From: an uncultured bacterium
GTDB lineage: Bacteria; Chloroflexota; UBA5177; JANWHV01
Length of the DNA: 64,000 nucleotides
NCBI GenBank assembly: GCA_963729625.1
Contig: CAVSOU010000014.1
Location: forward strand, 32,001 to 96,000
Reading direction: 5' to 3'
The translations under genes and the position numbers were made by a program. A model generated the notes under the pieces. That model ran no database searches, was not told where the DNA came from, and worked only from the letters and a program-made list of their open reading frames with translations. This document shows, piece by piece, positions 40,252 to 53,319 of the stretch; within the stretch, counting starts at the first letter, position 1, and every line of letters starts with the position of its first letter.

Positions 40252-40304
40252 ATTGGGGCGTAGGTACCACCCGAAGCCGGGCCACCGGCCGGACTACAAT
40301 GGGG

Positions 40305-40376
40305 CTGGGGTGCCAGGATTCGAACCTGGGAATGCCGGTTCCAAAGACCGGTGCCTTACCACTTGGCGACACCCCA
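40305..40376 (-). tRNA. tRNA-Gln(TTG), CCA not encoded
   Basis: TGGGGTG/CACCCCA acceptor stem, CCGGT-CTTTGGA-ACCGG anticodon arm, GGTTCGAATCC T arm; promoter TTGACA-17-TACCTT at 40414-40386. Confidence 0.97.
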
Positions 40377-40637: not shown

Positions 40638-42143
40638 GTGACGTTGCGCCTCATCAACCTGGTATTGTTTGCCGCATTGGTGCTCGGAACGTGTGGCATG
40701 GCGACGCCGCTGGCGAGGGCCGGCGGCGCGCCGATCTATGATCTGGGCGGCATTACCCTGCTCGTCCGGACTGGTGACGAACAGATTGATACGGCCGAGC
40801 GCTACGCACTTGCCGTGCTTGGGGCAGACTATGACGGCACGGTGCATACAGCGGCCACGGATTATTACTCCAATCCCTGGGTTCGCGACAGTTTCGCGTG
40901 GGGTATGTTGCCGTCGTTGCTCGATGCAAGCGTGGCGTCGTACACGTCTACCGAGCTCCAGTACTGGTTGCCGCGTCAGCAACGATTTGGCGGCTGGGTC
41001 ACCGCACCCGAATCCGGGTATTTCGACGAGACCGCAATCCTGATTTCCGCCGTGCTGGACGCATATGAGATTTCGGGCGACATCGGGCTGGTCCGTCAGG
41101 CTGTGCCGCGCCTTGTTCGCGGCTGGGCCTGGCTGCAACACAGCTACGTCAGTCCGGACCGCGGCAGCACTTACCTCCTGTATGCCAACGTGCCTCCTCA
41201 CGTTGCGACCGACTGGGCAGACCAGGTGGCGCGCAGTGGATATGCGACGCAACTCGAAGCGCTTTGGTATTCGGCGACGAACAGCCTTTCGATCATGGAG
41301 CGACTGCTGGGGAACCGCACCGCGTCAACCCAATTCGCCACATTTGCCTCTCACATTAGGTCCGACATCAACAGGATGCTCTGGACAACGGCTGCGCCTT
41401 ACGCGACAGATGCAGCCCCAGTCGGAGGTTTTGGCCATTATCGCTCCTGGTTGGGTCCTCGCGACTACTTCGAGCTCGACAGCAACTTCCTGTGTGTACT
41501 CTACGGCATCGCCGACAGTAGCCAGGCGCGAAGTATCACCGGATTCGTCCGGCAGCACCAGACCTATTTGCTTGGTCTGAACACGAGCTACGGCGTTCCG
41601 GCGAAGGTGCTCTACGGCGATTACGCCCCGGCGGATTATGCCGGCAGGCACGAACGCCTGGGCCCGGGCAAGTACCAGAACGGCTATTGGCCTATAGTAG
41701 GGTCTCTGGCCGCGATGGCCTTTGCGACGGTCGGCGACACTGCGGAATCCCGGGCAATTCTCGCACAGATCGGTGCGGCGTTCGTGCGCGAACGCGATGT
41801 TCGCGAGTGGTACACGCAGGACGGCGACGGATCGGGCGCGCCGGCGTTTCAGTGGGCTGCACGCATGTTCGTCACGGCACTGTACTCCGCGTATCTCGGC
41901 ATACAGCCCTACACCGTTGATCGAGGGGAGAGGCTGACGGCAGGAATCCAGCTGCGTGCTCCCGACGGAGGCGGCTCCGCGGATATCGCATTCCATGGAC
42001 GCACTCTTCACGTCTCGGTCGACCGATCAGGGTCGTCGCCCTACGTAGCGCTTAACGGAAGGATTCTACCTGGAACACAGGTTCCTGGCGCGCTGCTGTG
42101 CGCGGGTTGTACTTTGGAATCACGCTGGGGTTCGCCGGCCTGA
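40638..42143 (+). CDS. Secreted six-hairpin (alpha/alpha)6 glycosidase-like protein
   Basis: Signal peptide ending ARA; WVRDS, FDET, DW.D, YQNG.WP, VREWY, FQWAA; exact GH family not assignable. Confidence 0.65.
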   Translation: MTLRLINLVLFAALVLGTCGMATPLARAGGAPIYDLGGITLLVRTGDEQIDTAERYALAVLGADYDGTVHTAATDYYSNPWVRDSFAWGMLPSLLDASVASYTSTELQYWLPRQQRFGGWVTAPESGYFDETAILISAVLDAYEISGDIGLVRQAVPRLVRGWAWLQHSYVSPDRGSTYLLYANVPPHVATDWADQVARSGYATQLEALWYSATNSLSIMERLLGNRTASTQFATFASHIRSDINRMLWTTAAPYATDAAPVGGFGHYRSWLGPRDYFELDSNFLCVLYGIADSSQARSITGFVRQHQTYLLGLNTSYGVPAKVLYGDYAPADYAGRHERLGPGKYQNGYWPIVGSLAAMAFATVGDTAESRAILAQIGAAFVRERDVREWYTQDGDGSGAPAFQWAARMFVTALYSAYLGIQPYTVDRGERLTAGIQLRAPDGGGSADIAFHGRTLHVSVDRSGSSPYVALNGRILPGTQVPGALLCAGCTLESRWGSPA

Positions 42144-42189
42144 GCTGTGCTAAAATCCCTAAGAGATTTTGCCGAACGCAAGGTGTAAA

Positions 42190-44247
42190 ATGCGCTTTCG
42201 TATCGATTCCAGACTGCTTGATCGCTTCCCGAATGCATGCATTGGACTCGTTGTCGCCTACGATCTCGACAACCGCGGGAACAGCCCGGTCATCACAAAT
42301 CTGCTGAGGAGCTCCGAATCGGATGTGCGGGAGCGATTCGCGACCGAGAACATGCTCGCGTTGCCCGCGTTTGTCACGTGGCATGAAGCATTTGCCAGGC
42401 TGGGCATGAGCGCAAAGCGATTCAAGATCTCGGTCGAAGCGCTGGCTGCACGTGTGCTGAAGGGCGCGCGACTGCCCGACCTGAATCCCGCCGTCGATCT
42501 GGCCAATGCATTATCCCTCAAGTACTTGCTCCCTCTTGGCGCTCACGACGTCGATCGCCTTCGTGGAGACATCGTCGTCGGCCCCGTACGCCCAGGGGCG
42601 GCGTTCACTCCGATGGGCGGCTCGAAGCCTGAAACGGTCGATCTGGAGGAGATCGTGTACGCGGACGACCAGGAGGTGCGCACGCGAAGGTGGGTGTGGC
42701 GGGAGGGCGAGCATTCACGGGTCACGGCCACGACGCGAACGGTGTTGTTTCCCATCGATGGGTGGATTGGACTCAACGATTCGGATGTGCGTTCGGCAAA
42801 GGTCGAGCTCGCTACCCTCCTCGAGGAGCAGCTCGGCGCGCATGTACGGACGTTCTTCCTGGATCGAAGCACTCCCGAAGCGGTGCTGGAACCCGACGAT
42901 TCGCGTCAGGATCAGCCCATTTCTACCCACGATGGGTTTCGCATGGCCGGAGTCGCGTATCGCGAGATTCCCTCCGAGCCGGTCACCGTCAAGGCGGAAG
43001 CTCTCGAGCCGGTGGTTGAGCAAGCGCGGCCAACGATCCGTCGCGCCGGGCCCTGGGGCAAGCAGGACGCGATCTCCAGCCTGCTGAATCGGGCCACCGA
43101 ACATGTCGTGATCCGTGAAGAGCTGGAGGGGCGGCTGCGAAGCGGCGACCGACTGCGCGTTAAGCTCGGGATCGATCCGACGAGTCCCCATGTGCATATC
43201 GGCCATGCCGTCGTATTGCGGAAGCTTCGTGCCTTTCAGGACCTTGGGCACACGATCTGCCTCGTCATCGGCGACTTCACAGCTCAAATTGGCGACACAT
43301 CCGACAAGTCGGCCATGCGACAGATGCTCTCCGAGGAAGACGTTTATCAGCACCTGACAACCTACAAGAAGCAGATATCTCAAATACTCGACGAGTCGAA
43401 AGTCGAGTGGAGCTACAACACCGACTGGCTAGGCTCGCTTCGCTTCAAGGACGTGGTCGGACTGGCGGCCAATTTCACCGTCGCTCAGATGCTTGAGCGC
43501 GAGAGCTTCGCCAAACGCTACGAAGCTGGACAGTCGATCGGTCTGCAGGAGTTCCTGTACCCGCTGATGCAGGGGTACGATTCGGTCGCTCTGAAAGCAG
43601 ACGTCGAAGCAGGCGGCACGGACCAGCTCTTCAACTTGATTGCCGGTCGCACGTTGCAGCGTGCATTCGGGCAGCCGCCGCAAGCAGTGCTCACCTGCCC
43701 ACTCCTGCTGGGCCTCGACGGCCGCAAGATGAGTAAGTCGTACGGTAACTTCATCGCACTTGACGAGCCGGCCAAAGATATGTACGGGAAAGCAATGTCC
43801 TTTCCGGACGAGCAGATTCTTCCATGCTTCGAGCTTTGCACAGACGTTCCGCTCGATGAGCTGGACACCATCGCGGACGCGCTGGAGGCAGGGCAGAATC
43901 CAATGATCGCGAAGAAGCGGTTGGCCTTCGAGATCACACGACTTTACCACTCCGAGGCGGCGACCCGATCGGCTCAAGAGGCATTTGAACGCGAGGTGCA
44001 GCGCAGGGAACGCCCTGCCGACATTCCAGTCGTCACGCTTGACCGTGGAGGTGAGTGGCTGCTGGCGGACCTCGTCGTGGCAACGGGCCTCTCCAAATCA
44101 AAGGGTGAGGCGCGGCGAAAGGCCGCTGAGGGCGCCGTGTACTACGACAATACACGTGTCATTGATCCACTGGCGTCCATAGAGGTCCGGGATGGCATGG
44201 TGATCAAGCTCGGCAGGCACTATCGCCAACTCCGACTACCCACATAA
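42190..44247 (+). CDS. tyrS: Tyrosyl-tRNA synthetase with N-terminal B3/4 domain fusion
   Basis: 42190-~42890: SVEAL..R.LKG..LP..NP.VD..N..SLKY.LP.G..D, EIVY.D, TRRW.WR (B3/4). From 43066: VKLGIDPT, HIGH (43195), YPLMQGYD, GGTDQ.FN, KMSKS (43726), C-terminal S4 domain. Extended -10 TGCTAAAAT at 42148-42156. Confidence 0.93.
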   Translation: MRFRIDSRLLDRFPNACIGLVVAYDLDNRGNSPVITNLLRSSESDVRERFATENMLALPAFVTWHEAFARLGMSAKRFKISVEALAARVLKGARLPDLNPAVDLANALSLKYLLPLGAHDVDRLRGDIVVGPVRPGAAFTPMGGSKPETVDLEEIVYADDQEVRTRRWVWREGEHSRVTATTRTVLFPIDGWIGLNDSDVRSAKVELATLLEEQLGAHVRTFFLDRSTPEAVLEPDDSRQDQPISTHDGFRMAGVAYREIPSEPVTVKAEALEPVVEQARPTIRRAGPWGKQDAISSLLNRATEHVVIREELEGRLRSGDRLRVKLGIDPTSPHVHIGHAVVLRKLRAFQDLGHTICLVIGDFTAQIGDTSDKSAMRQMLSEEDVYQHLTTYKKQISQILDESKVEWSYNTDWLGSLRFKDVVGLAANFTVAQMLERESFAKRYEAGQSIGLQEFLYPLMQGYDSVALKADVEAGGTDQLFNLIAGRTLQRAFGQPPQAVLTCPLLLGLDGRKMSKSYGNFIALDEPAKDMYGKAMSFPDEQILPCFELCTDVPLDELDTIADALEAGQNPMIAKKRLAFEITRLYHSEAATRSAQEAFEREVQRRERPADIPVVTLDRGGEWLLADLVVATGLSKSKGEARRKAAEGAVYYDNTRVIDPLASIEVRDGMVIKLGRHYRQLRLPT

Positions 44248-44327: not shown

Positions 44328-45107
44328 ATGGCTGAACTAGGACCTGGTGAAGCAGTCTATCGCAACCTCTGCGAGATGTGGCGCTCAGTTGGACGCCATT
44401 CAGGCGGCAACTCGAGTTTCGTGGTCGAGGATCGCGAAGACATGCTTCTCGTCAAGTCGCAGTTTGCGCATCGCGTGCCGCACATGGTTCTGGATCCGCG
44501 GGTGACGCCGGGGATGGAACACGCATGGACTCGATCGATCATCCGGGAGTGGGCAGGAGAATCGGTCGCAGTCATGGTCGAAATCCCACCGGGCACGGAA
44601 GGTGGAGCTCTGGCTGCTTCGTTGCGCGAGGAAGGGTTCGTACGCGGAATGCGACCGTCCATCGGCATGACGCTCGAAGCGAAGCCAGCGTTTGACGTGC
44701 GAGACGATGCTTCGATTTCGCTCGCCAGCGACGGAGCGGACCTTGACGAGGCTCGCGAGGTGCTTGGGTCGGTGTTTGGCCTTCCGAGCCATGTTTTCGC
44801 ATTCTATACGCCACCGCACGTGGTCCGCACGTTTATTCTGCGTGAGTTTGGGATCGGGGTTGCCGCCGCGTGCCTGTGCCCGTTCGCCGGCGTCGCCGGC
44901 GTGTATAGCGTCGGCGTACTGCCAACTTCTCGCGGGAAAGGGTGTGCGCGACGTCTGGTGCTGTATGTGCTCAGCCAGGCCGCGCAAATGGGGCTGACAA
45001 CCGCCGTGCTGTCCTGTGAACACCACCTGGCACCGCTGTACCGCAGCCTTGGCTTCTCTGTCCGCTGCGAGCTGACAACATATTGGCTGGAGTCAGCGTG
45101 GCGATGA
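44328..45107 (+). CDS. GNAT family N-acetyltransferase
   Basis: GVYSVGVLPTSRGKG (motif A), LY.SLGF. Confidence 0.85.
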   Translation: MAELGPGEAVYRNLCEMWRSVGRHSGGNSSFVVEDREDMLLVKSQFAHRVPHMVLDPRVTPGMEHAWTRSIIREWAGESVAVMVEIPPGTEGGALAASLREEGFVRGMRPSIGMTLEAKPAFDVRDDASISLASDGADLDEAREVLGSVFGLPSHVFAFYTPPHVVRTFILREFGIGVAAACLCPFAGVAGVYSVGVLPTSRGKGCARRLVLYVLSQAAQMGLTTAVLSCEHHLAPLYRSLGFSVRCELTTYWLESAWR

Positions 45108-45190: not shown

Positions 45191-47596
45191 GTGAACTGGG
45201 ACATGATTACCGACAAAGCGCTGCACACGCTTGAATATGACCGGGTCCTCGGCAAGGTCGCGGGGCACACCAGCTTCTCGCTGAGCAAGGAAATGGTTCT
45301 TGCTCTGCAGCCTTGCACCGAGCTCGACGAAGTGCAAGAACTGCAGGGCCGCGTTGCAGAGGCAATGCGCGTGCTCGATTCGCGCGCGGACGTTTCGCTG
45401 GGCGGCGCGCACGATATTCGCCAGGATGTCACGCGCGCGGCTCTTGGAGGAACACTTGACCCCGCCCAGCTGCTCGAGATCCTGGGCACGCTCGAGTGCG
45501 CTGAGCGCGTTCGCGGCACGCTCGCGCGCCTCACCGCCGACGACTATCCCTGGCTCGTGCAACTCCGAACTCGAATAGGCACGTTCAGGGAAATCATCGC
45601 TTTGATCCTTCAGACTGTGAGCCAGCAGGGTGAGATCCTGGATTCGGCCAGTCCGGCGCTTGCAAAGATTCGTGTCGATCTTCGGCTGGCCTATCAGCGT
45701 CTCATGGATCGCCTGCAGAGCATTCTGAGCTCACAGACGTACCGCAACGCGATACAGGAACCGATCATTACGATGCGCAACGGCCGCTACGTCATACCGG
45801 TGCGATCGGACATGCGTGGCGTCGTGCGGGGCGCCGTGCATGACCATTCGTCAAGCGGGGCAACCCTCTACGTAGAACCATTTCAGACCAGCGAGCTGAA
45901 CAACCGCTGGCGAGAGCTGCAGCTTCAAGAGCAGGAAGAGATCGCGCGCATTCTGCGCGTCATATCCGAACGTATTGCCTCGCAGGCGCCGTCGCTTCTA
46001 ACCACCGTCAATGCACTGGCGGAGTTTGACGTGACGCTCGCAAAGGCGCGTTTTGGCGGCTCCGTGCACGGCACGCTCCCGGTACTGGCAGCCGACGGCA
46101 GGGTCGATTTGCTCCAGGCCCGACATCCGCTGCTGTCCGGACACGTGGTGCCGATCAGTGTGCGGCTGGGCGACGAGTTTCGCCAGCTGCTCGTCACGGG
46201 TCCGAATACTGGCGGCAAGACCGTTGCGCTGAAGACGGTAGGGCTGCTCACGCTCATGGCACAGTCGGGGATTCCCATTCCTGCTGAATCGGGATCGCGC
46301 GTTGCGGTATTCGACGGCGTCTTTGCGGACATCGGCGATGAGCAAAGCATCGAACAAAGTCTCAGTACGTTTAGCAGCCATATGAACAACATTATTCGCT
46401 TACTTGACGAGCTGACCGACCGCAGCTTGCTCTTGCTCGATGAGCTGGGTGCGGGCACCGATCCCGCCGAAGGATCCGCGCTTGCGCGATCCCTGCTCAC
46501 ATACTTGCTAAAGACGCCCGCGCGCGTGATGGCCACAACCCACTATAGCGAGCTCAAGGCCTTTGCCTCGACGACTGACGGCGTGGAGAATGCGAGCGTC
46601 GAGTTTGACATCGACACACTCTCGCCGACGTTTCGCTTGAGCATTGGGTTGCCCGGACGGAGCAACGCACTTGCCATAGCCTCTCGTCTCGGCCTGCGGC
46701 CTGAGATCATCGACGGCTCGAGGGAGTTTCTCAGCTCTGAAGAGACGCGCGTAGAGACCATGCTCGCGCAAATAGCTCATGATCGCGAGACCGCGGCGGA
46801 GCTCTATGCCGCGGCCACCGAGGCTCAGAGACGCGCATCAGAGCTTCGATCTCGGCTCGAACAAGAGGTAGAATCGGTTCTTCACGAGCGAGACAGCATC
46901 CTGCGCGCGGCACGAGCAGCCGCCGAAGCCAGTGTGAGTGACCTTCGGCGCGAGCTTGACCGGGCTGAGGCGGAAATGCGCGTGCATGGCTCAACGCAGA
47001 CGGTCACGCTAGCGGCTCTGCGCGATCGCGTCGAGCGCGCATCCGAGCACCAGGCCAAGGCGCTTGCGGAGCCCGCAAACTCCATCCTCCAGGCAGCGCC
47101 GCCATCAGCTCCGATTTCAGACCGAGCAATTAGCGTGGGCGACCGCATACAGGTACTTCGCACGGGGCAGGACGGGACCGTAAGTGCTATCCCGCCCGGA
47201 AGAAGCGACATTGAAATCCAGATCGGCGCGTTCAAGATGCGCGCCAAGCTGAAGGACGTTCGTCTCGTCGCCCGCTTGGAGGATCTTGCGCCTGTGGACG
47301 AGTCGCGCTATGGTGGCGGGACACAGATAGTAAGAAGCGCAGGACCGGCGCCGAGCCTGGACTTCGACATGCGCGGTTGGAGAGTGGACGAAGTCATACC
47401 CGAGCTCGAGCGCTACCTCAACGACGCATACATGTCGAACATGCCGTTCGTCAGGATCATACATGGGAAGGGAACTGGCGCGCTTCGACAGGTCGTCCGT
47501 GAGGAGCTCGCGACCAATCCGCTGGTCAGCTCGTTTAAGGGCGCCGATGATCACGCGGGTGGCGAAGGAGTGACGATCGCGCACCTGGCCGTGTAG
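45191..47596 (+). CDS. mutS2: MutS2 endonuclease/ATPase with Smr domain
   Basis: R.GRYVIPV, HD.SSSG.T.YVEP, TGPNTGGKT, DIGDEQSIEQSLSTFS, DELG.GTDP, IIHGKGTG.LR; start may be ATG 45203. Confidence 0.96.
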   Translation: MNWDMITDKALHTLEYDRVLGKVAGHTSFSLSKEMVLALQPCTELDEVQELQGRVAEAMRVLDSRADVSLGGAHDIRQDVTRAALGGTLDPAQLLEILGTLECAERVRGTLARLTADDYPWLVQLRTRIGTFREIIALILQTVSQQGEILDSASPALAKIRVDLRLAYQRLMDRLQSILSSQTYRNAIQEPIITMRNGRYVIPVRSDMRGVVRGAVHDHSSSGATLYVEPFQTSELNNRWRELQLQEQEEIARILRVISERIASQAPSLLTTVNALAEFDVTLAKARFGGSVHGTLPVLAADGRVDLLQARHPLLSGHVVPISVRLGDEFRQLLVTGPNTGGKTVALKTVGLLTLMAQSGIPIPAESGSRVAVFDGVFADIGDEQSIEQSLSTFSSHMNNIIRLLDELTDRSLLLLDELGAGTDPAEGSALARSLLTYLLKTPARVMATTHYSELKAFASTTDGVENASVEFDIDTLSPTFRLSIGLPGRSNALAIASRLGLRPEIIDGSREFLSSEETRVETMLAQIAHDRETAAELYAAATEAQRRASELRSRLEQEVESVLHERDSILRAARAAAEASVSDLRRELDRAEAEMRVHGSTQTVTLAALRDRVERASEHQAKALAEPANSILQAAPPSAPISDRAISVGDRIQVLRTGQDGTVSAIPPGRSDIEIQIGAFKMRAKLKDVRLVARLEDLAPVDESRYGGGTQIVRSAGPAPSLDFDMRGWRVDEVIPELERYLNDAYMSNMPFVRIIHGKGTGALRQVVREELATNPLVSSFKGADDHAGGEGVTIAHLAV

Positions 47597-48356: not shown

Positions 48357-50888
48357 TTACGTGCTCGGTGTCTCGTAGCTCGATTCCGACAGGCGCACGC
48401 TTCCTTGTTCGTCGCGGAACGAAGCGCCCAGCCGGTGCATCAGCGTCCTGCGGATCCGATTCATCGTCTTGTCGACTTCGTCGTCAGTCAGGGTGCGGTC
48501 ACCAGTCTGAAAATCAAGTGCAAAGGCGAGACTCTTCTTGGCTGCCGGCAGTTGATCGCCCCGGTAGACGTCGAAAAGCGTGATTGCAGCCAAGAGTCCT
48601 TTGGCTGACCGCCTGACTTCATCAAGCACGGTTTCCGCCTGGCACGAGGTGTCGACCACGACGGCGATGTCGCGCTTTGCCACCGGCTGGCGCGGATAGT
48701 CCGCAAAGGTTCGCTCGTGAGAGGCGCGGGCGGCAAGCGCATCGAAATCGAGCTCGGCGATATACGCGCGTCTGGGTGGGAGGTCCCATCGGCCGGCAAT
48801 CGTCGGATGCAGCTCGCCGAGGAATCCGAGCGAGACGCCGCCGAGCTCCAGCGATGCCGCACGGCCAGGGTGCAGCAACGGATGGGCGCGGGCGACCATC
48901 GACCAACCGCCCACTCCTAGCCGCTGAAGCAGCGTCTCGACCACTCCCTTAATATCGAAGAAGTCGAAGCTTTCACGACCAGTTGCCCAGGATACGCCCT
49001 CCCTCATGCCGGCCATGGCGACCGCAAGGACCCGCCGCTCAATGGGCAACCCCTCGCGTTTGGCAACTGAACAGACGTCCAGCTCGAAGAATGCCGCGCG
49101 CTCCTCACCCAAGCGCAGATTGTCGCGAAGCGCCTCGAGCAGTCCAGCCAGCAGCGTTGGGCGCAAGAACTCCCGGTCCGGGCTCAACGGATTCACGACA
49201 CGCACTGCGGAAAAAGTGCTTTCGCCGGAGGCAAGGGCTGTGGGGTTGGGCAATATGTGCGCGAGCCAGGGTTCAGACGCACTTTCTGGCCGAAGCAGGG
49301 ACAGCGAGCGGATGCTTGTGAGACCACTGCTGCTGGCTTCGTCCAGGCCGCAACCAAGCAGGATTGTCCTCGCGGGCCAATAGTGCTGGAGTCCAACGGA
49401 TTCGGGCCGGGGAGGAACCGAACCTTCGAGCAGCGTCTCGGGGATCGCGTCAAAGCCGGTGACGCGCGCCACCTCCTCCACGAGATCGGCGGCTCCGTCC
49501 AGGTCCTCGCGCCACCACGGAACGGTCACTCGGAGAGCGCTGTCACTCACAGTCTTCGTGACGAACCCTAGCGACGTCAGATTGGAAACGATAGTGTCGG
49601 TCGGCCAGTCGACGCCAAGCAGTCGTTTGACTTCTGAGGTCGAGAAATCAATGATCTGGGGTGCCGGATCGTCGCCTCCAACCCACATCACGTCCGATTC
49701 GACACGGCCACCTCCCAGCTCGGCTATCAGCGTTGCAGCGCGCCGCGCGGCCCTTGCCGCCAACTGAACCGGCAGGCCCTTCTCGAAGCGAGTCGACGCC
49801 TCAGTACGAAGGCCGAGCGCGACGCTGGTTCGCCGGATGCTGCGAGCGTTGAAGGTGGCGGCCTCCAGCAGGATGTTCGTGGTCGTCCCGCCAACTTCGG
49901 TGTTCTGGCCGCCCATGATCCCGGCGATGCCGATAGCGTGGCTGGCGTCGACGATCAGCAGCATGTCCTGCGTGAGCTCGCGTTCGACGCCGTCCAACGT
50001 GACGATCTGCTCGCCTTCTCGTGCCCTTCTCACGCGCAGGCTGGGGCCCGCCAGCGTGTCCAGGTCGTACGCGTGCAACGGTTGACCGAGCTCCAACATG
50101 ACATAATTCGTGACATCCACAACATTGTTGATTGCTCGCACTCCGGCGGCCTGGAGCCGGTCGGCAAGCCACTGCGGCGATGGGCCAATTGTAATCCCCC
50201 CGATCACACATGCGGATACACGCCTGCATAGATCAGGGTCTTCGATTGCCAGGGTAACGTCGGTCCGTGTCGTCGCAGGAAAGTCTTCCGGTTGGGGCAG
50301 AGCCCGGAGGGTGCCTCCGGTCACAGCCGATACCTCACGCGCCATGCCATATATCGACAGGCAATCAGGCCTGTTCGGAGTGATATCGAGCTCGAGCACC
50401 CATTCGCCGATCAGATGCGACAAAGGCTGCCCGGGAACGGCCTGCCGGCCCGATCCAAGCTGGATCGCCGAGGCATCAAGGATCAGGATTCCCTCATGAT
50501 TATCATTGAGGCCAAGCTCTTTGCCCGAACAGACCATTCCCTCGGAACGAATGCCCCTCAGCACCTTTCCCTCGAGCGGCCTGTCCTGACCGGGCAGCGT
50601 CTTGCCTACGCCGATATATGGCACGAGAGCGCCCTCGAAGAGATTTGGGGCGCCAGTGACCACAGTTTGGGTCCGGCCGCCGAGGTCGAGCGTAGCCAGC
50701 AGGAGGTTGTCGGCGTTCGGGTGTCTGTCGAGCCGTTGCACCCTGGCGACGAGAATCTCATCGAAGCGGCTACCGGTGTTCTCGACGCGTTCCACGAGCG
50801 ATCCGCTTGACGTCAGACGCTCGGCCAGTTGCTTTGGCGAGAGCTGGACGTCCACGTACGATTGAAGCCATCCCAGCGGTAGTCTCAT
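48357..50888 (-). CDS. pheT: Phenylalanyl-tRNA synthetase beta subunit
   Basis: HPNAD.L, TPNRPDCLS..G.ARE, INNVVDVTNYVMLELGQPLHAYD, DLVEEVAR, RDIA.VV, FDVY.G, TLTD.EV. Confidence 0.97.
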   Translation of the reverse strand: MRLPLGWLQSYVDVQLSPKQLAERLTSSGSLVERVENTGSRFDEILVARVQRLDRHPNADNLLLATLDLGGRTQTVVTGAPNLFEGALVPYIGVGKTLPGQDRPLEGKVLRGIRSEGMVCSGKELGLNDNHEGILILDASAIQLGSGRQAVPGQPLSHLIGEWVLELDITPNRPDCLSIYGMAREVSAVTGGTLRALPQPEDFPATTRTDVTLAIEDPDLCRRVSACVIGGITIGPSPQWLADRLQAAGVRAINNVVDVTNYVMLELGQPLHAYDLDTLAGPSLRVRRAREGEQIVTLDGVERELTQDMLLIVDASHAIGIAGIMGGQNTEVGGTTTNILLEAATFNARSIRRTSVALGLRTEASTRFEKGLPVQLAARAARRAATLIAELGGGRVESDVMWVGGDDPAPQIIDFSTSEVKRLLGVDWPTDTIVSNLTSLGFVTKTVSDSALRVTVPWWREDLDGAADLVEEVARVTGFDAIPETLLEGSVPPRPESVGLQHYWPARTILLGCGLDEASSSGLTSIRSLSLLRPESASEPWLAHILPNPTALASGESTFSAVRVVNPLSPDREFLRPTLLAGLLEALRDNLRLGEERAAFFELDVCSVAKREGLPIERRVLAVAMAGMREGVSWATGRESFDFFDIKGVVETLLQRLGVGGWSMVARAHPLLHPGRAASLELGGVSLGFLGELHPTIAGRWDLPPRRAYIAELDFDALAARASHERTFADYPRQPVAKRDIAVVVDTSCQAETVLDEVRRSAKGLLAAITLFDVYRGDQLPAAKKSLAFALDFQTGDRTLTDDEVDKTMNRIRRTLMHRLGASFRDEQGSVRLSESSYETPST

Positions 50889-50923
50889 GCATTACTGCAG
50901 CTTTCGCCGCCATTCCCTTCGAA

Positions 50924-51964
50924 CTACGCAAACTGCCGCAGGAAGCGCAGGTCATTTGCATTCAATAGCCGGATGTCGTTGATGCCGTAGCGCATCATCG
51001 TGATGCGCTCAGGGCCCATGCCGAACGCAAAGCCACTGAACTTGGCGGGATCGTAGTCCATGTTCCTCAGAACCTGAGGATGCACCATTCCTGCGCCGCT
51101 GATCTCCAACCAACCTTCATACTTGCACGTGCGGCAGCCTTCTCCACCACAGACGAGACACGAAAAATCGAATTCGGCGCTGGGTTCGGTGAACTGGAAA
51201 TGATGCGGGCGGAACCGCACTTTGCAGCCCAGTATTTGCTTGGCAAAGCTGGCGAGAACGCCTTTCAAGTCACTGAAGGTCACATGCTTATCCACTGCCA
51301 GACCTTCGCACTGCCAGAAGTAGCTCAAATGCGAGGCATCTTCCTGATCGCGGCGGAAACACCGCCCGGGAGCGATGATCCGCACAGGAGGACGTTGGCT
51401 CAGCATCACGCGCGCTTGCACGGGCGACGTATGCGTGCGCAGCACGATGCCTCCGGGCACATCCACGTAGAAGGTGTCCATCGTATCGCGTGATGGACTG
51501 TCCTGCGGGATGTTAAGCAGCTCGAAGTTGTACTTGTCCCACTCGACCTCCGGCCCTTCGGCCACCGTGAAACCCATAGAGCCAAAGATCCGTACCAGGT
51601 CACGCAGCGTTTCACGCACAGGATGAGGCAGACCGAGCCGCGGGTTTCTGGCTGGAAGGCTGACGTCGACGGCTTCTCGATCGAGACTGTTCAGCAAGGC
51701 GGCCTGCTGGAGACTCGCACGCGCCGCTTCGTGCGCCGCCTCGAGCACCTTCTTCGCCTCGTTCATGGCCTGGCCTGCTACCGGCCGTTCTTCTCGCGGA
51801 AGTGCGCCTAACCCCTTGAAATGAGCGGTCAGCGCTCCGTTCGTGCCGAGGTACTTGATGCGCCACTGTTCCAGGGCAGCCAGGCCATCGAGACCGATGA
51901 GCGCGGATTCTGCTTCGCTGCGAAGCGCCTGTAGCCGCGCCACAAACTCGTGTGCCTCATTCAC
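50924..51964 (-). CDS. pheS: Phenylalanyl-tRNA synthetase alpha subunit
   Basis: LRTHTSPVQ, PGR.FR.D, RFRP..F.FTEPS, CxxC-GxGCxxC insert, GFAFGMG.ER. Confidence 0.97.
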   Translation of the reverse strand: MNEAHEFVARLQALRSEAESALIGLDGLAALEQWRIKYLGTNGALTAHFKGLGALPREERPVAGQAMNEAKKVLEAAHEAARASLQQAALLNSLDREAVDVSLPARNPRLGLPHPVRETLRDLVRIFGSMGFTVAEGPEVEWDKYNFELLNIPQDSPSRDTMDTFYVDVPGGIVLRTHTSPVQARVMLSQRPPVRIIAPGRCFRRDQEDASHLSYFWQCEGLAVDKHVTFSDLKGVLASFAKQILGCKVRFRPHHFQFTEPSAEFDFSCLVCGGEGCRTCKYEGWLEISGAGMVHPQVLRNMDYDPAKFSGFAFGMGPERITMMRYGINDIRLLNANDLRFLRQFA

Positions 51965-53234: not shown

Positions 53235-53307
53235 GGGCCCTTAGCTCAGCGGTTAGAGCTCCCGACTCATAATCGGTTGGTCCCCGGTTCGAATCCGGGA
53301 GGGCCCA
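53235..53307 (+). tRNA. tRNA with CAT anticodon, most likely tRNA-Ile2 (lysidine); CCA not encoded
   Basis: GGGCCCT/AGGGCCC acceptor stem, CCGA-CTCATAA-TCGG, GGTTCGAATCC. Resembles E. coli ileX and lacks initiator features. Confidence 0.9.
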
Positions 53308-53319
53308 CTCTTCTCTTGA
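53266..53319 (+). repeat. attL: 54-bp direct repeat, copy 1 (tRNA anticodon loop to 12 nt past the tRNA end)
   Basis: CTCATAATCGGTTGGTCCCCGGTTCGAATCCGGGAGGGCCCACTCTTCTCTTGA, identical to 63102-63155. Confidence 0.97.

Follow-up and report, generated by a model that had tools for sequence, protein, structure and literature searches.

The described systems closest to the gene presented here are two enzymes that carry the B3/4 editing fold. The first is CtdA, a free-standing canavanyl-tRNA(Arg) deacylase with solved structures (PDB 9f7e and 9mkl; PMC10018355, PMC12449066, PMC12268091); in the sections of PMC12449066 on its aminoacyl pocket, this is formed by N105, G116, E118, C166, Q173 and I189 (S. 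enterica numbering), the substitutions N105A, G116H/W and Q173G inactivate the enzyme, C166 tunes its specificity, and a CtdA-specific helical insert is placed as helices within residues 28-92. The second is the B3/4 domain of the beta chain (PheT) of phenylalanyl-tRNA synthetase (PheRS), which hydrolyzes Tyr- and m-Tyr-tRNA(Phe), and for which the same sections name H265, G318, E334 and others as the residues that recognize tyrosine in E. coli. In a 64,000-nucleotide stretch of DNA from an uncultured Chloroflexota bacterium (contig CAVSOU010000014.1; the window), we find a CtdA-like B3/4 module joined in frame to a complete tyrosyl-tRNA synthetase (TyrRS). To our knowledge, TyrRS is a textbook synthetase that is accurate without an editing site. 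We think it reasonably likely that the module serves in tethered post-transfer editing of tRNA(Tyr) that has been mischarged with a tyrosine analogue.

The list of open reading frames (ORFs) and the translation, together with Pfam and NCBIfam matches, confirmed that positions 42190..44247 of the forward strand are one gene encoding a B3/4 module, a tether and an intact TyrRS, and that the single uninterrupted 685-aa ORF described in an earlier note, made from the letters of the window, is present. The open frame spans 42169..44247 (+) and would give 692 aa from a TTG, with the ATG at 42190 giving 685 aa. Since the two domain matches (E 1e-25 and E 1e-74) fall within one frame, chance is excluded. 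The features of the gene are as follows:

42180..42185, + strand: AAGGTG, Shine-Dalgarno-like, read from the sequence, with a spacer of 4 nt to the ATG
42190..44247, + strand: complete fusion gene of 685 aa and a stop codon, comprising B3/4 module, tether and TyrRS
42190..42894, + strand: CtdA-type B3/4 deacylase-like module, residues 1-235 (PDB sequence search, domain model, Foldseek)
42505..42753, + strand: stretch with the predicted aminoacyl pocket (N106, G117, H119, D120, T165, R166, R167, W168, V169, W170, R171, E172, P188)
42895..43056, + strand: disordered, length-variable tether, about residues 236-289 (low predicted local distance difference test score, pLDDT; low conservation)
43057..44016, + strand: TyrRS catalytic (Rossmann) domain, with HIGH (336-339), GDFT, LYPxxQxYDS and KMSKS (513-517)
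44017..44244, + strand: TyrRS C-terminal S4-like tRNA-binding domain, residues 610-685 (marginal in Pfam, folded in the model)

Sequence searches and structure prediction support assignment of the module to the free-standing (CtdA) type and do not support the PheT type. Pfam B3_4 matches residues 64-192 (88.7 bits, E 4.3e-25), and a PDB sequence search of the module returned CtdA (9f7e, E 2e-19; 9mkl, E 5e-16) well ahead of PheT chains (E 7e-4 to 0.04). The domain model (pLDDT 95.8, predicted template modeling score (pTM) 0.92) was compared with solved structures using Foldseek, giving TM scores of 0.85/0.88 against 9mkl and 0.82/0.83 against 9f7e over 225-227 columns, with a root-mean-square deviation of 2.5-2.9 Å, and query TM scores (TMq) of 0.40-0.57, with E values of 6e-10 or weaker, against PheRS beta chains. 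Helices 33-49, 59-70 and 81-90 of the model correspond to the CtdA-specific helical insert. The superposition on 9mkl and the confidence of the model agree with the complete, free-standing-type domain of about 235 aa that the earlier note had read from the letters, and CtdA is closer than PheT in both the sequence search and the Foldseek comparison.

CtdA is the best-matching solved structure, and shares with the module its full-length fold, the essential Asn and Gly, and the RRWxWR(Q/E) motif. The module is nevertheless not CtdA proper: CtdA stands alone whereas the module is joined to TyrRS; CtdA residues E118, C166 and I189 are His119, Thr165 and Pro188; the Tyr that precedes the catalytic Asn in CtdA is Ala; and the Asn of the CtdA motif CRRWNWRQ is Val. 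With TyrRS as the partner, a role on canavanine and tRNA(Arg) is unlikely. The PheT domain has the same superfamily fold, shares the catalytic Asn with the module and is likewise appended to an aromatic synthetase, which offers a parallel of post-transfer editing in cis that is predicted on the side of the module. In contrast to PheT, which accepts tyrosine, the module must reject it, and we judge sound the argument of the earlier note that a module placed on TyrRS cannot hydrolyze Tyr-tRNA(Tyr). The module also lacks the PheT-specific helices and flanking domains, and the positions of PheRS H265 and G318, as placed by the alignment of PMC12449066, are Gly117 and Glu/Gln172. We also considered assignment to the 'CtdA-2' clade, which the portions of that paper dealing with it describe as about 20% identical to CtdA-1, with bacterial members lacking the C166 position and the RRWxWRQ motif. 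This assignment was rejected, as the module has TRRWVWRE where the divergent sequences of the supplement have PTADSKRT or TVSDSERT, the clade labels of single sequences being our own inference from the sequences in that supplement.

Mapping of the pocket by a phmmer alignment to 9mkl, in which the chain index is the published number plus two (an offset inferred from six matching residues), places CtdA N105, G116, E118, C166, Q173 and I189 at N106, G117, H119, T165, E172 and P188 of the window protein. The motifs DLANA, GAHD and FPID reported previously are present in the translation, and the difference from CtdA falls at exactly the specificity positions; the contrast that the earlier note drew with DIYN/GGED was roughly right, DLYN and GGEN/GGED being the motifs of the CtdA type. 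All 75 aligned fusions have N106 and G117, in keeping with the Asn/Gly pair of the family, and H119, D120, T165-W170, P188 and D190 are conserved at 90% or more in the same set. Across 120 full-length fusions, the pocket blocks of the module match the TyrRS core in conservation (about 0.75 each). We sorted 399 proteins by fusion partner with phmmer and aligned their modules, which gave 127 TyrRS-fused modules and a comparison set of 41 modules fused to other synthetases (ArgRS, 37; class I LysRS, 2; class II enzymes, 2), with the following residues at the pocket positions:

Position 106: N in 124/127 TyrRS-fused; N in 41/41 Arg/Lys/class II-fused
Position 117: G in 124/127 TyrRS-fused; G in 41/41 Arg/Lys/class II-fused
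Position 119: H in 122/127 TyrRS-fused; H in 0/41 Arg/Lys/class II-fused (E or D in 41/41)
Position 165: T in 126/127 TyrRS-fused; C in 28/41 and T in 10/41 Arg/Lys/class II-fused
Position 169: V/I in 125/127 TyrRS-fused; V/I in 0/41 Arg/Lys/class II-fused (N in 40/41)
Position 188: P in 122/127 TyrRS-fused; P in 0/41 Arg/Lys/class II-fused (I/V/L/Y in 41/41)
Position 105: Y in 5/127 TyrRS-fused; Y in 41/41 Arg/Lys/class II-fused

In these alignments the predicted catalytic core is kept everywhere, and the predicted specificity lining tracks the fusion partner. An acidic residue at position 119 on enzymes for basic amino acids, and His together with smaller or hydrophobic lining residues on the aromatic one, fits a pocket matched to the near-cognates of each partner.

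The TyrRS half is intact, as the earlier note had stated from its HIGH, KMSKS and S4 regions. Residues 320-601 match tRNA-synt_1b (PF00579; 250.6 bits), and residues 293-660 match the NCBIfam equivalog tyrS (TIGR00234) at 337 bits against a cut-off of 113.8, which identifies the protein as a TyrRS. The best PDB matches are TyrRSs of the Thermus (TyrZ-like) type that align end to end (6bqy, E 1.9e-95; T. thermophilus 1h3e, E 4.5e-87). H336, G338, D369, Y457, Q461, D464, K513 and M514 are invariant across the 75 aligned fusions, and the Asp/Tyr/Gln/Asp set of D369, Y457, Q461 and D464, which we take, from the B. stearothermophilus literature, to bind tyrosine, corresponds to the GD and YxxxQxxD residues in 2ts1 and 1h3e. 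We looked for a relaxed TyrRS pocket and saw none, these four residues being the same in every one of the 75 aligned fusions. The C-terminal domain is marginal in Pfam, with SYY_C-terminal (PF22421) at 26.8 bits over residues 610-667, just below the 27-bit cut-off, and S4 at E 0.089; its predicted fold has a pLDDT above 90 and relatives pass the S4 threshold. We infer from homology, and from the status of this gene as the sole tyrS of its genome, that the fused enzyme would tyrosylate tRNA(Tyr).

The two halves are separated by the linker of about 55 aa noted previously. In the full-length model (pLDDT 90.3, pTM 0.60) both domains exceed a pLDDT of 90, and residues 236-245 and 248-282 fall below 50, so that the model describes two predicted rigid domains on a disordered tether. 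Across the 120 full-length fusions the tether has a column occupancy of 0.36-0.44 and a conservation of 0.13-0.18, and the gap between the two domain matches varies from 7 to 75 aa. Such a disordered, variable tether is expected for hand-over within one molecule, and not for a rigid new active site. There is no stop or frameshift between the halves in the window, nor in 22 other independently assembled genomes that carry the fusion. Metagenome contigs covering 42742-42892 and 42909-43104 contain no indels, and none spans the junction; the four metagenome runs used contained at most 0.15 of the sampled words and gave assembled pieces of 151-295 nt.

The fusion is natural, being in frame and conserved across 23 genomes, and it is not rare: many lineages of Chloroflexota have it as their standard TyrRS. 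Among the best 120 matches listed by a search of 5.8 billion clustered proteins, more than 100 clusters share the PF03483 and PF00579 fusion at 42-75% identity, mostly 635-784 aa in length, and the entries that have a source name are called 'tyrosine--tRNA ligase' and come from Chloroflexota. Of 401 genomes sampled evenly across the phylum, 86 contain a relative of the module (E <= 1e-10) and 388 contain a tyrS match; in 23 of them, from 10 family codes, the B3/4 module and TyrRS were verified to share a single stop-free frame. Verification covered high-identity places only, with two further likely fusion genomes, the unpublished G226 and G186 (split at contig ends), standing outside the verified 23, and the frame of one fusion (G004) is cut by a contig end. 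The tallies 38/41, 86/401 and 388/401 include the unpublished genomes G018, G055, G175, G226 and G343, none of which is among the verified 23. The window's own assembly (5.4 Mb, 21 contigs, 87% complete) contains the fused gene as its sole tyrS by profile search, the next match being weak (30.6 bits) and below the cut-off, and the one further B3_4 domain of the assembly is the canonical domain of pheT (227.9 bits), in agreement with the earlier note, which had placed a B3/4 domain in the pheT of this window. The fusion is the sole tyrS in 22 of the 23 verified genomes, and is therefore the housekeeping enzyme of these lineages. In the exception, G076, four tyrS match pieces represent two fused copies (L112:3342-5543 and L113:231-2324), whose TyrRS halves align with that of the window in two pieces, suggesting that their catalytic domain contains an insertion. 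Genomes from other families of the same class lack the fusion and have a TyrRS of a distant type (about 31% identity).

The module also occurs in proteins that stand alone. These free-standing relatives are 233-238 aa in length and up to 49% identical to the module over its full length, from sources that include Desulfovirgula, Anaeroselena, Clostridiales, Thermomicrobium and Nitrolancea, and in 36 aligned sequences their H119, D120, T165, P188 and D190 are invariant. These uncharacterized His/Thr proteins of Bacillota and Chloroflexota (for example, P0124 of Desulfovirgula thermocuniculi, with a typical length of about 233 aa) share the pocket signature of the fused module and form its sister group on our tree, differing in that they are not fused. 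The motif [VI][RK]TR[RK]W[VI]WR gave 439 confirmed relatives in a species-level genome collection, the best 80 of which are mostly from Bacillota. In the phylogeny of PMC12449066 (2025), as far as its alignment and the accompanying passages go, proteins of this kind are filed as 'CtdA', with one Sphaerobacter thermophilus entry in the alignment, and divergent CtdA members are said to have possibly other specificities.

Fusion to TyrRS belongs to a broader pattern: CtdA-like modules are also found attached to ArgRS, LysRS and other enzymes. Modules with the CtdA signature lie N-terminal to a complete ArgRS in P0317, P0367, P0313, P0251 and others; there are 15 B3/4-ArgRS fusions among 36 long matches scanned by Pfam, and a dedicated search gave 27 clusters, with Candidatus Dojkabacteria ('arginine--tRNA ligase') as the one organism named by any source. 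From their sequences, these look like natural cis-editing ArgRSs directed against canavanine-like analogues, and the 2023 CtdA paper, in the part that treats the matter, states that up to then an editing domain had not been described for ArgRS. Like the TyrRS fusion, the B3/4-ArgRS and B3/4-LysRS proteins (e.g., P0317 and P0327) combine a mostly N-terminal module of the same family with a synthetase that itself lacks an editing domain, but the modules on ArgRS, LysRS and class II enzymes keep the CtdA-type pocket and fall in the other major clade of the tree. On class I LysRS the module is found once at the N-terminal and once at the C-terminal end, and further partners are a class II Asp/Lys/Asn-type synthetase, a tRNA_bind domain, a GNAT acetyltransferase and an amidase (the LysRS, class II, tRNA_bind, GNAT and amidase fusions being among P0327, P0349, P0333, P0308, P0356, P0330, P0351 and P0364). 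Two further frames of this kind were seen in the genome sample: a stop-free frame of 533 codons containing B3/4 and the tryptophan synthase alpha chain, either a fusion or abutting genes (L114:2630-4228 (-), G288), and a frame of 616 codons with B3/4 at its C-terminal end and an N-terminal part without a Pfam match (L111:2290-4137 (+), G244).

To place these modules relative to each other, we used a FastTree phylogeny of 187 modules, made up of every second TyrRS-fused and every second free-standing row and all 19 other fusions then known. The tree splits, at a support of 91, into a clade of 58 rows and a His/Thr clade of 129 rows. The former contains all 15 ArgRS, 2 LysRS and 2 class II fusions together with free proteins of CtdA signature, and the latter contains 63 of the 64 TyrRS-fused rows. 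Inside the His/Thr clade, one weakly supported group (support 37) comprises 59 TyrRS-fused and 2 free rows, and beside it stands a group made up of 62 free rows and 3 fused ones. On this tree the TyrRS label must change 8 times, with well-supported branches forcing 4 or more of these changes, which means that fusion or fission recurred within one pocket type, the direction not being given by the tree.

The architecture, fold, conservation, partner-specific pocket and sole-copy status are observed features of the fusion; that the module is a deacylase, that it acts on tRNA(Tyr) and what kind of substrate it takes would be predictions from them. In the mechanism that we propose, TyrRS, by homology, would charge tRNA(Tyr), and would sometimes attach, in place of tyrosine, a non-protein amino acid that is near-cognate, the most plausible being a tyrosine analogue with a modified ring. 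The module, on its flexible tether of about 50 residues, would then capture the 3' CCA end of the still-bound or just-released tRNA and hydrolyze the ester bond through the Asn106/Gly117 pocket that it has in common with CtdA, with His119, Thr165, Val169, Pro188 and the small residue at 105 admitting the analogue and excluding tyrosine. TyrRS works as a dimer, with tRNA(Tyr) bound across the two subunits. Candidate substrates are presumably L-DOPA, halogenated or nitrated tyrosine and natural antimetabolites. On this view TyrRS here probably proofreads against a tyrosine look-alike, and we count in its favor a triple architecture (P0299, 825 aa) in which a YbaK-type tRNA_edit domain, B3/4 and TyrRS are combined. 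The earlier note had proposed either a self-proofreading TyrRS, directed against Phe, m-Tyr, DOPA or D-Tyr, or a tethered trans-editor; the natural fusion and the strongly conserved pocket speak for this pair of proposals, D-Tyr is disfavored, and none of Phe, m-Tyr and DOPA is singled out.

Several observations weigh against editing of tRNA(Tyr) by this module. The tyrosine pocket of the synthetase looks canonical, giving no sign of a relaxed specificity that would call for editing. A genome of the same genus (G002) has lost the module of about 670 nt and kept the linker and TyrRS (L009:1507-2895): its tyrS encodes 462 aa that align from residue 224 of the window protein at 68% identity, its TTG start lines up in the DNA alignment with the window's CTG codon for L224, and its upstream gene is 64% identical to that of the window, with a homologue of the downstream GNAT gene following its tyrS too. 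No free-standing copy of the module was found in this 83%-complete genome. Judging from this deletion and from the degenerate copies of one sub-lineage, the module is accessory and dispensable. Three of the 127 fused modules (P0048, P0051 and P0054, the same three without B3_4 in the precomputed Pfam list) have lost N106, G117, H119 and R171 and are still in frame; these look like modules that are decaying or repurposed, and they fit a non-catalytic role at least there. No TyrRS, ArgRS or class I LysRS frame lies within 8 kb of any of the best 80 free-standing loci (of 439), so that the link of this subfamily to tRNA(Tyr) rests on the fusion, and the free-standing set was gathered by similarity to the window query and is biased accordingly. 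Related sequences share partner labels, so that the partner-pocket counts suggest more independent events than there were. In addition, the tree is by FastTree only, is midpoint-rooted, contains half of the rows and leaves out 22 ArgRS fusions found later.

Four other explanations were weighed against tethered editing. The module could be a general trans-editor, an active deacylase on a substrate other than tRNA(Tyr), with the fusion providing co-expression or placement near the translation machinery; that the closest free-standing proteins work alone, with none of their 80 best loci (of 439) adjoining tyrS, that the long disordered tether and the pTM of 0.60 predict no fixed docking on TyrRS, and that the family is also fused to GNAT, amidase and tRNA_bind domains would all suit this explanation. 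We consider it improbable, since the type of pocket sorts cleanly by synthetase partner, which is hard to explain if the partner is irrelevant, and since CtdA acts on the tRNA of ArgRS, the very synthetase that carries its sister modules. We find it somewhat harder to believe that the B3/4 fold is an appended tRNA-binding, chaperoning or regulatory domain that hydrolyzes nothing. The three degenerate in-frame modules and the life of G002 without a module argue for such a domain, as does the existence of B3/4-like folds with no editing role (for example, the ribosome-associated human 8xp3 chain JC identified by Foldseek), but within the module conservation is highest at the CtdA-essential residues and in the lining of the pocket, and a pure binding domain would need neither this lining nor a pocket that is specific to the partner.

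TyrRS activates D-Tyr, its stereoselectivity being poor, and the D-Tyr-tRNA(Tyr) that it produces is the substrate of a known proofreader, DTD, which works via chirality and not through a side-chain pocket. A module on TyrRS could itself remove D-tyrosine, but canonical DTD (TIGR00256), of unrelated fold and family, is encoded separately in the window's genome (172 bits, above the cut-off) and in 18 of the 22 other fusion genomes; this coexistence in 19 of 23 genomes disfavors D-Tyr as the substrate, and the pocket of the module, judged by its residues, is side-chain-specific and partner-matched. Canonical DTD was not found in the remaining 4 of 22, three of them in one genus (G021, G045 and G078 of genus g14, which are 99, 97 and 81% complete, and G250, which is 76% complete), and DTD2 was not found in the window's genome; in a fusion lineage without DTD the module could have taken over this role, or the assemblies could have gaps. 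Overall, we regard a D-Tyr deacylase as very unlikely. Hardly credible is an artefact, in the form of an assembly or gene-call merge or of an internal start that yields a separate TyrRS. The tyrS of G002 does start at the position matching L224, and the linker has a Met at residue 252; the codon matching the TTG of G002 is CTG here, which led us to reject an internal start at that position, and no Shine-Dalgarno sequence is seen before M252, in line with the earlier reading that no convincing internal start precedes the TyrRS part. Furthermore, 23 independently assembled genomes and over 100 clusters at 42-75% identity show the same stop-free frame, and the contigs flanking the junction are free of indels.

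Full-text literature searches, with most subscription journals outside their coverage, found no study of a TyrRS-B3/4 fusion, and term searches of the retrievable text of the three CtdA papers (PMC10018355, PMC12449066, PMC12268091) gave 0 occurrences of 'fused' or 'fusion'. The domain combination is surely listed in InterPro-style architecture tables, and a study of it appears to be missing. If tethered editing of tRNA(Tyr) is true, a conserved, sole-copy TyrRS with a deacylase module would qualify the picture of TyrRS as an enzyme without editing. The fusion would then also serve as a 'Rosetta stone', giving a testable substrate class, tRNA(Tyr) with a tyrosine analogue, for a large uncharacterized B3/4 subgroup. 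More broadly, and at what we would put slightly below an even chance, the His/Thr B3/4 proteins may be an unrecognized aminoacyl-tRNA(Tyr) proofreading family, free-standing (mostly in Bacillota, among the best matches) and TyrRS-fused in Chloroflexota, that would constitute the first side-chain-specific editing for TyrRS, directed against a natural tyrosine antimetabolite, with CtdA-like modules forming a partner-matched plug-in toolkit (Tyr, Arg, Lys). The partner-matched pockets on TyrRS, ArgRS and LysRS fusions suggest a general modular route to gaining editing, and the modules could be natural scaffolds for engineering proofreading against non-canonical amino acids.

The fused gene lies among the following genes of the window:

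40303-40376, - strand: tRNA-Gln
40638-42143: MGH1-like glycoside hydrolase, weak Pfam match
44328-45107: GNAT acetyltransferase, directly downstream of the fused gene
45191-47596: MutS2/Smr
48357..50888, - strand: pheT, with its own canonical B3_4
48357-51964, - strand: pheT and an adjoining 346-aa ORF, probably pheS
53235-53308: tRNA-Met

The downstream GNAT gene was considered as a functional partner and rejected, being kept only within the window's genus, at 5 of 26 fusion loci. Around the best 80 free-standing loci, 68 of the 122 same-strand neighbors within 400 bp were scanned; these were heterogeneous and gave no functional clue, with neighbors recurring in close kin only (8 MerR/GyrI-like, 5 QueG, 3 Asp/Glu racemase and 2 YbaK-type). 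In L023 and L029 a free-standing His/Thr B3/4 gene is immediately preceded by a YbaK-type gene, and in some Peptostreptococcaceae that are close kin (L070, L074, L085) the B3/4 gene precedes an Asp/Glu/hydantoin racemase. In some closely related Clostridium (L065, L068, L082, L084 and others), the gene upstream of the free-standing His/Thr B3/4 protein encodes an epoxyqueuosine reductase of the QueG type; queuosine modifies tRNA(Tyr), among others.

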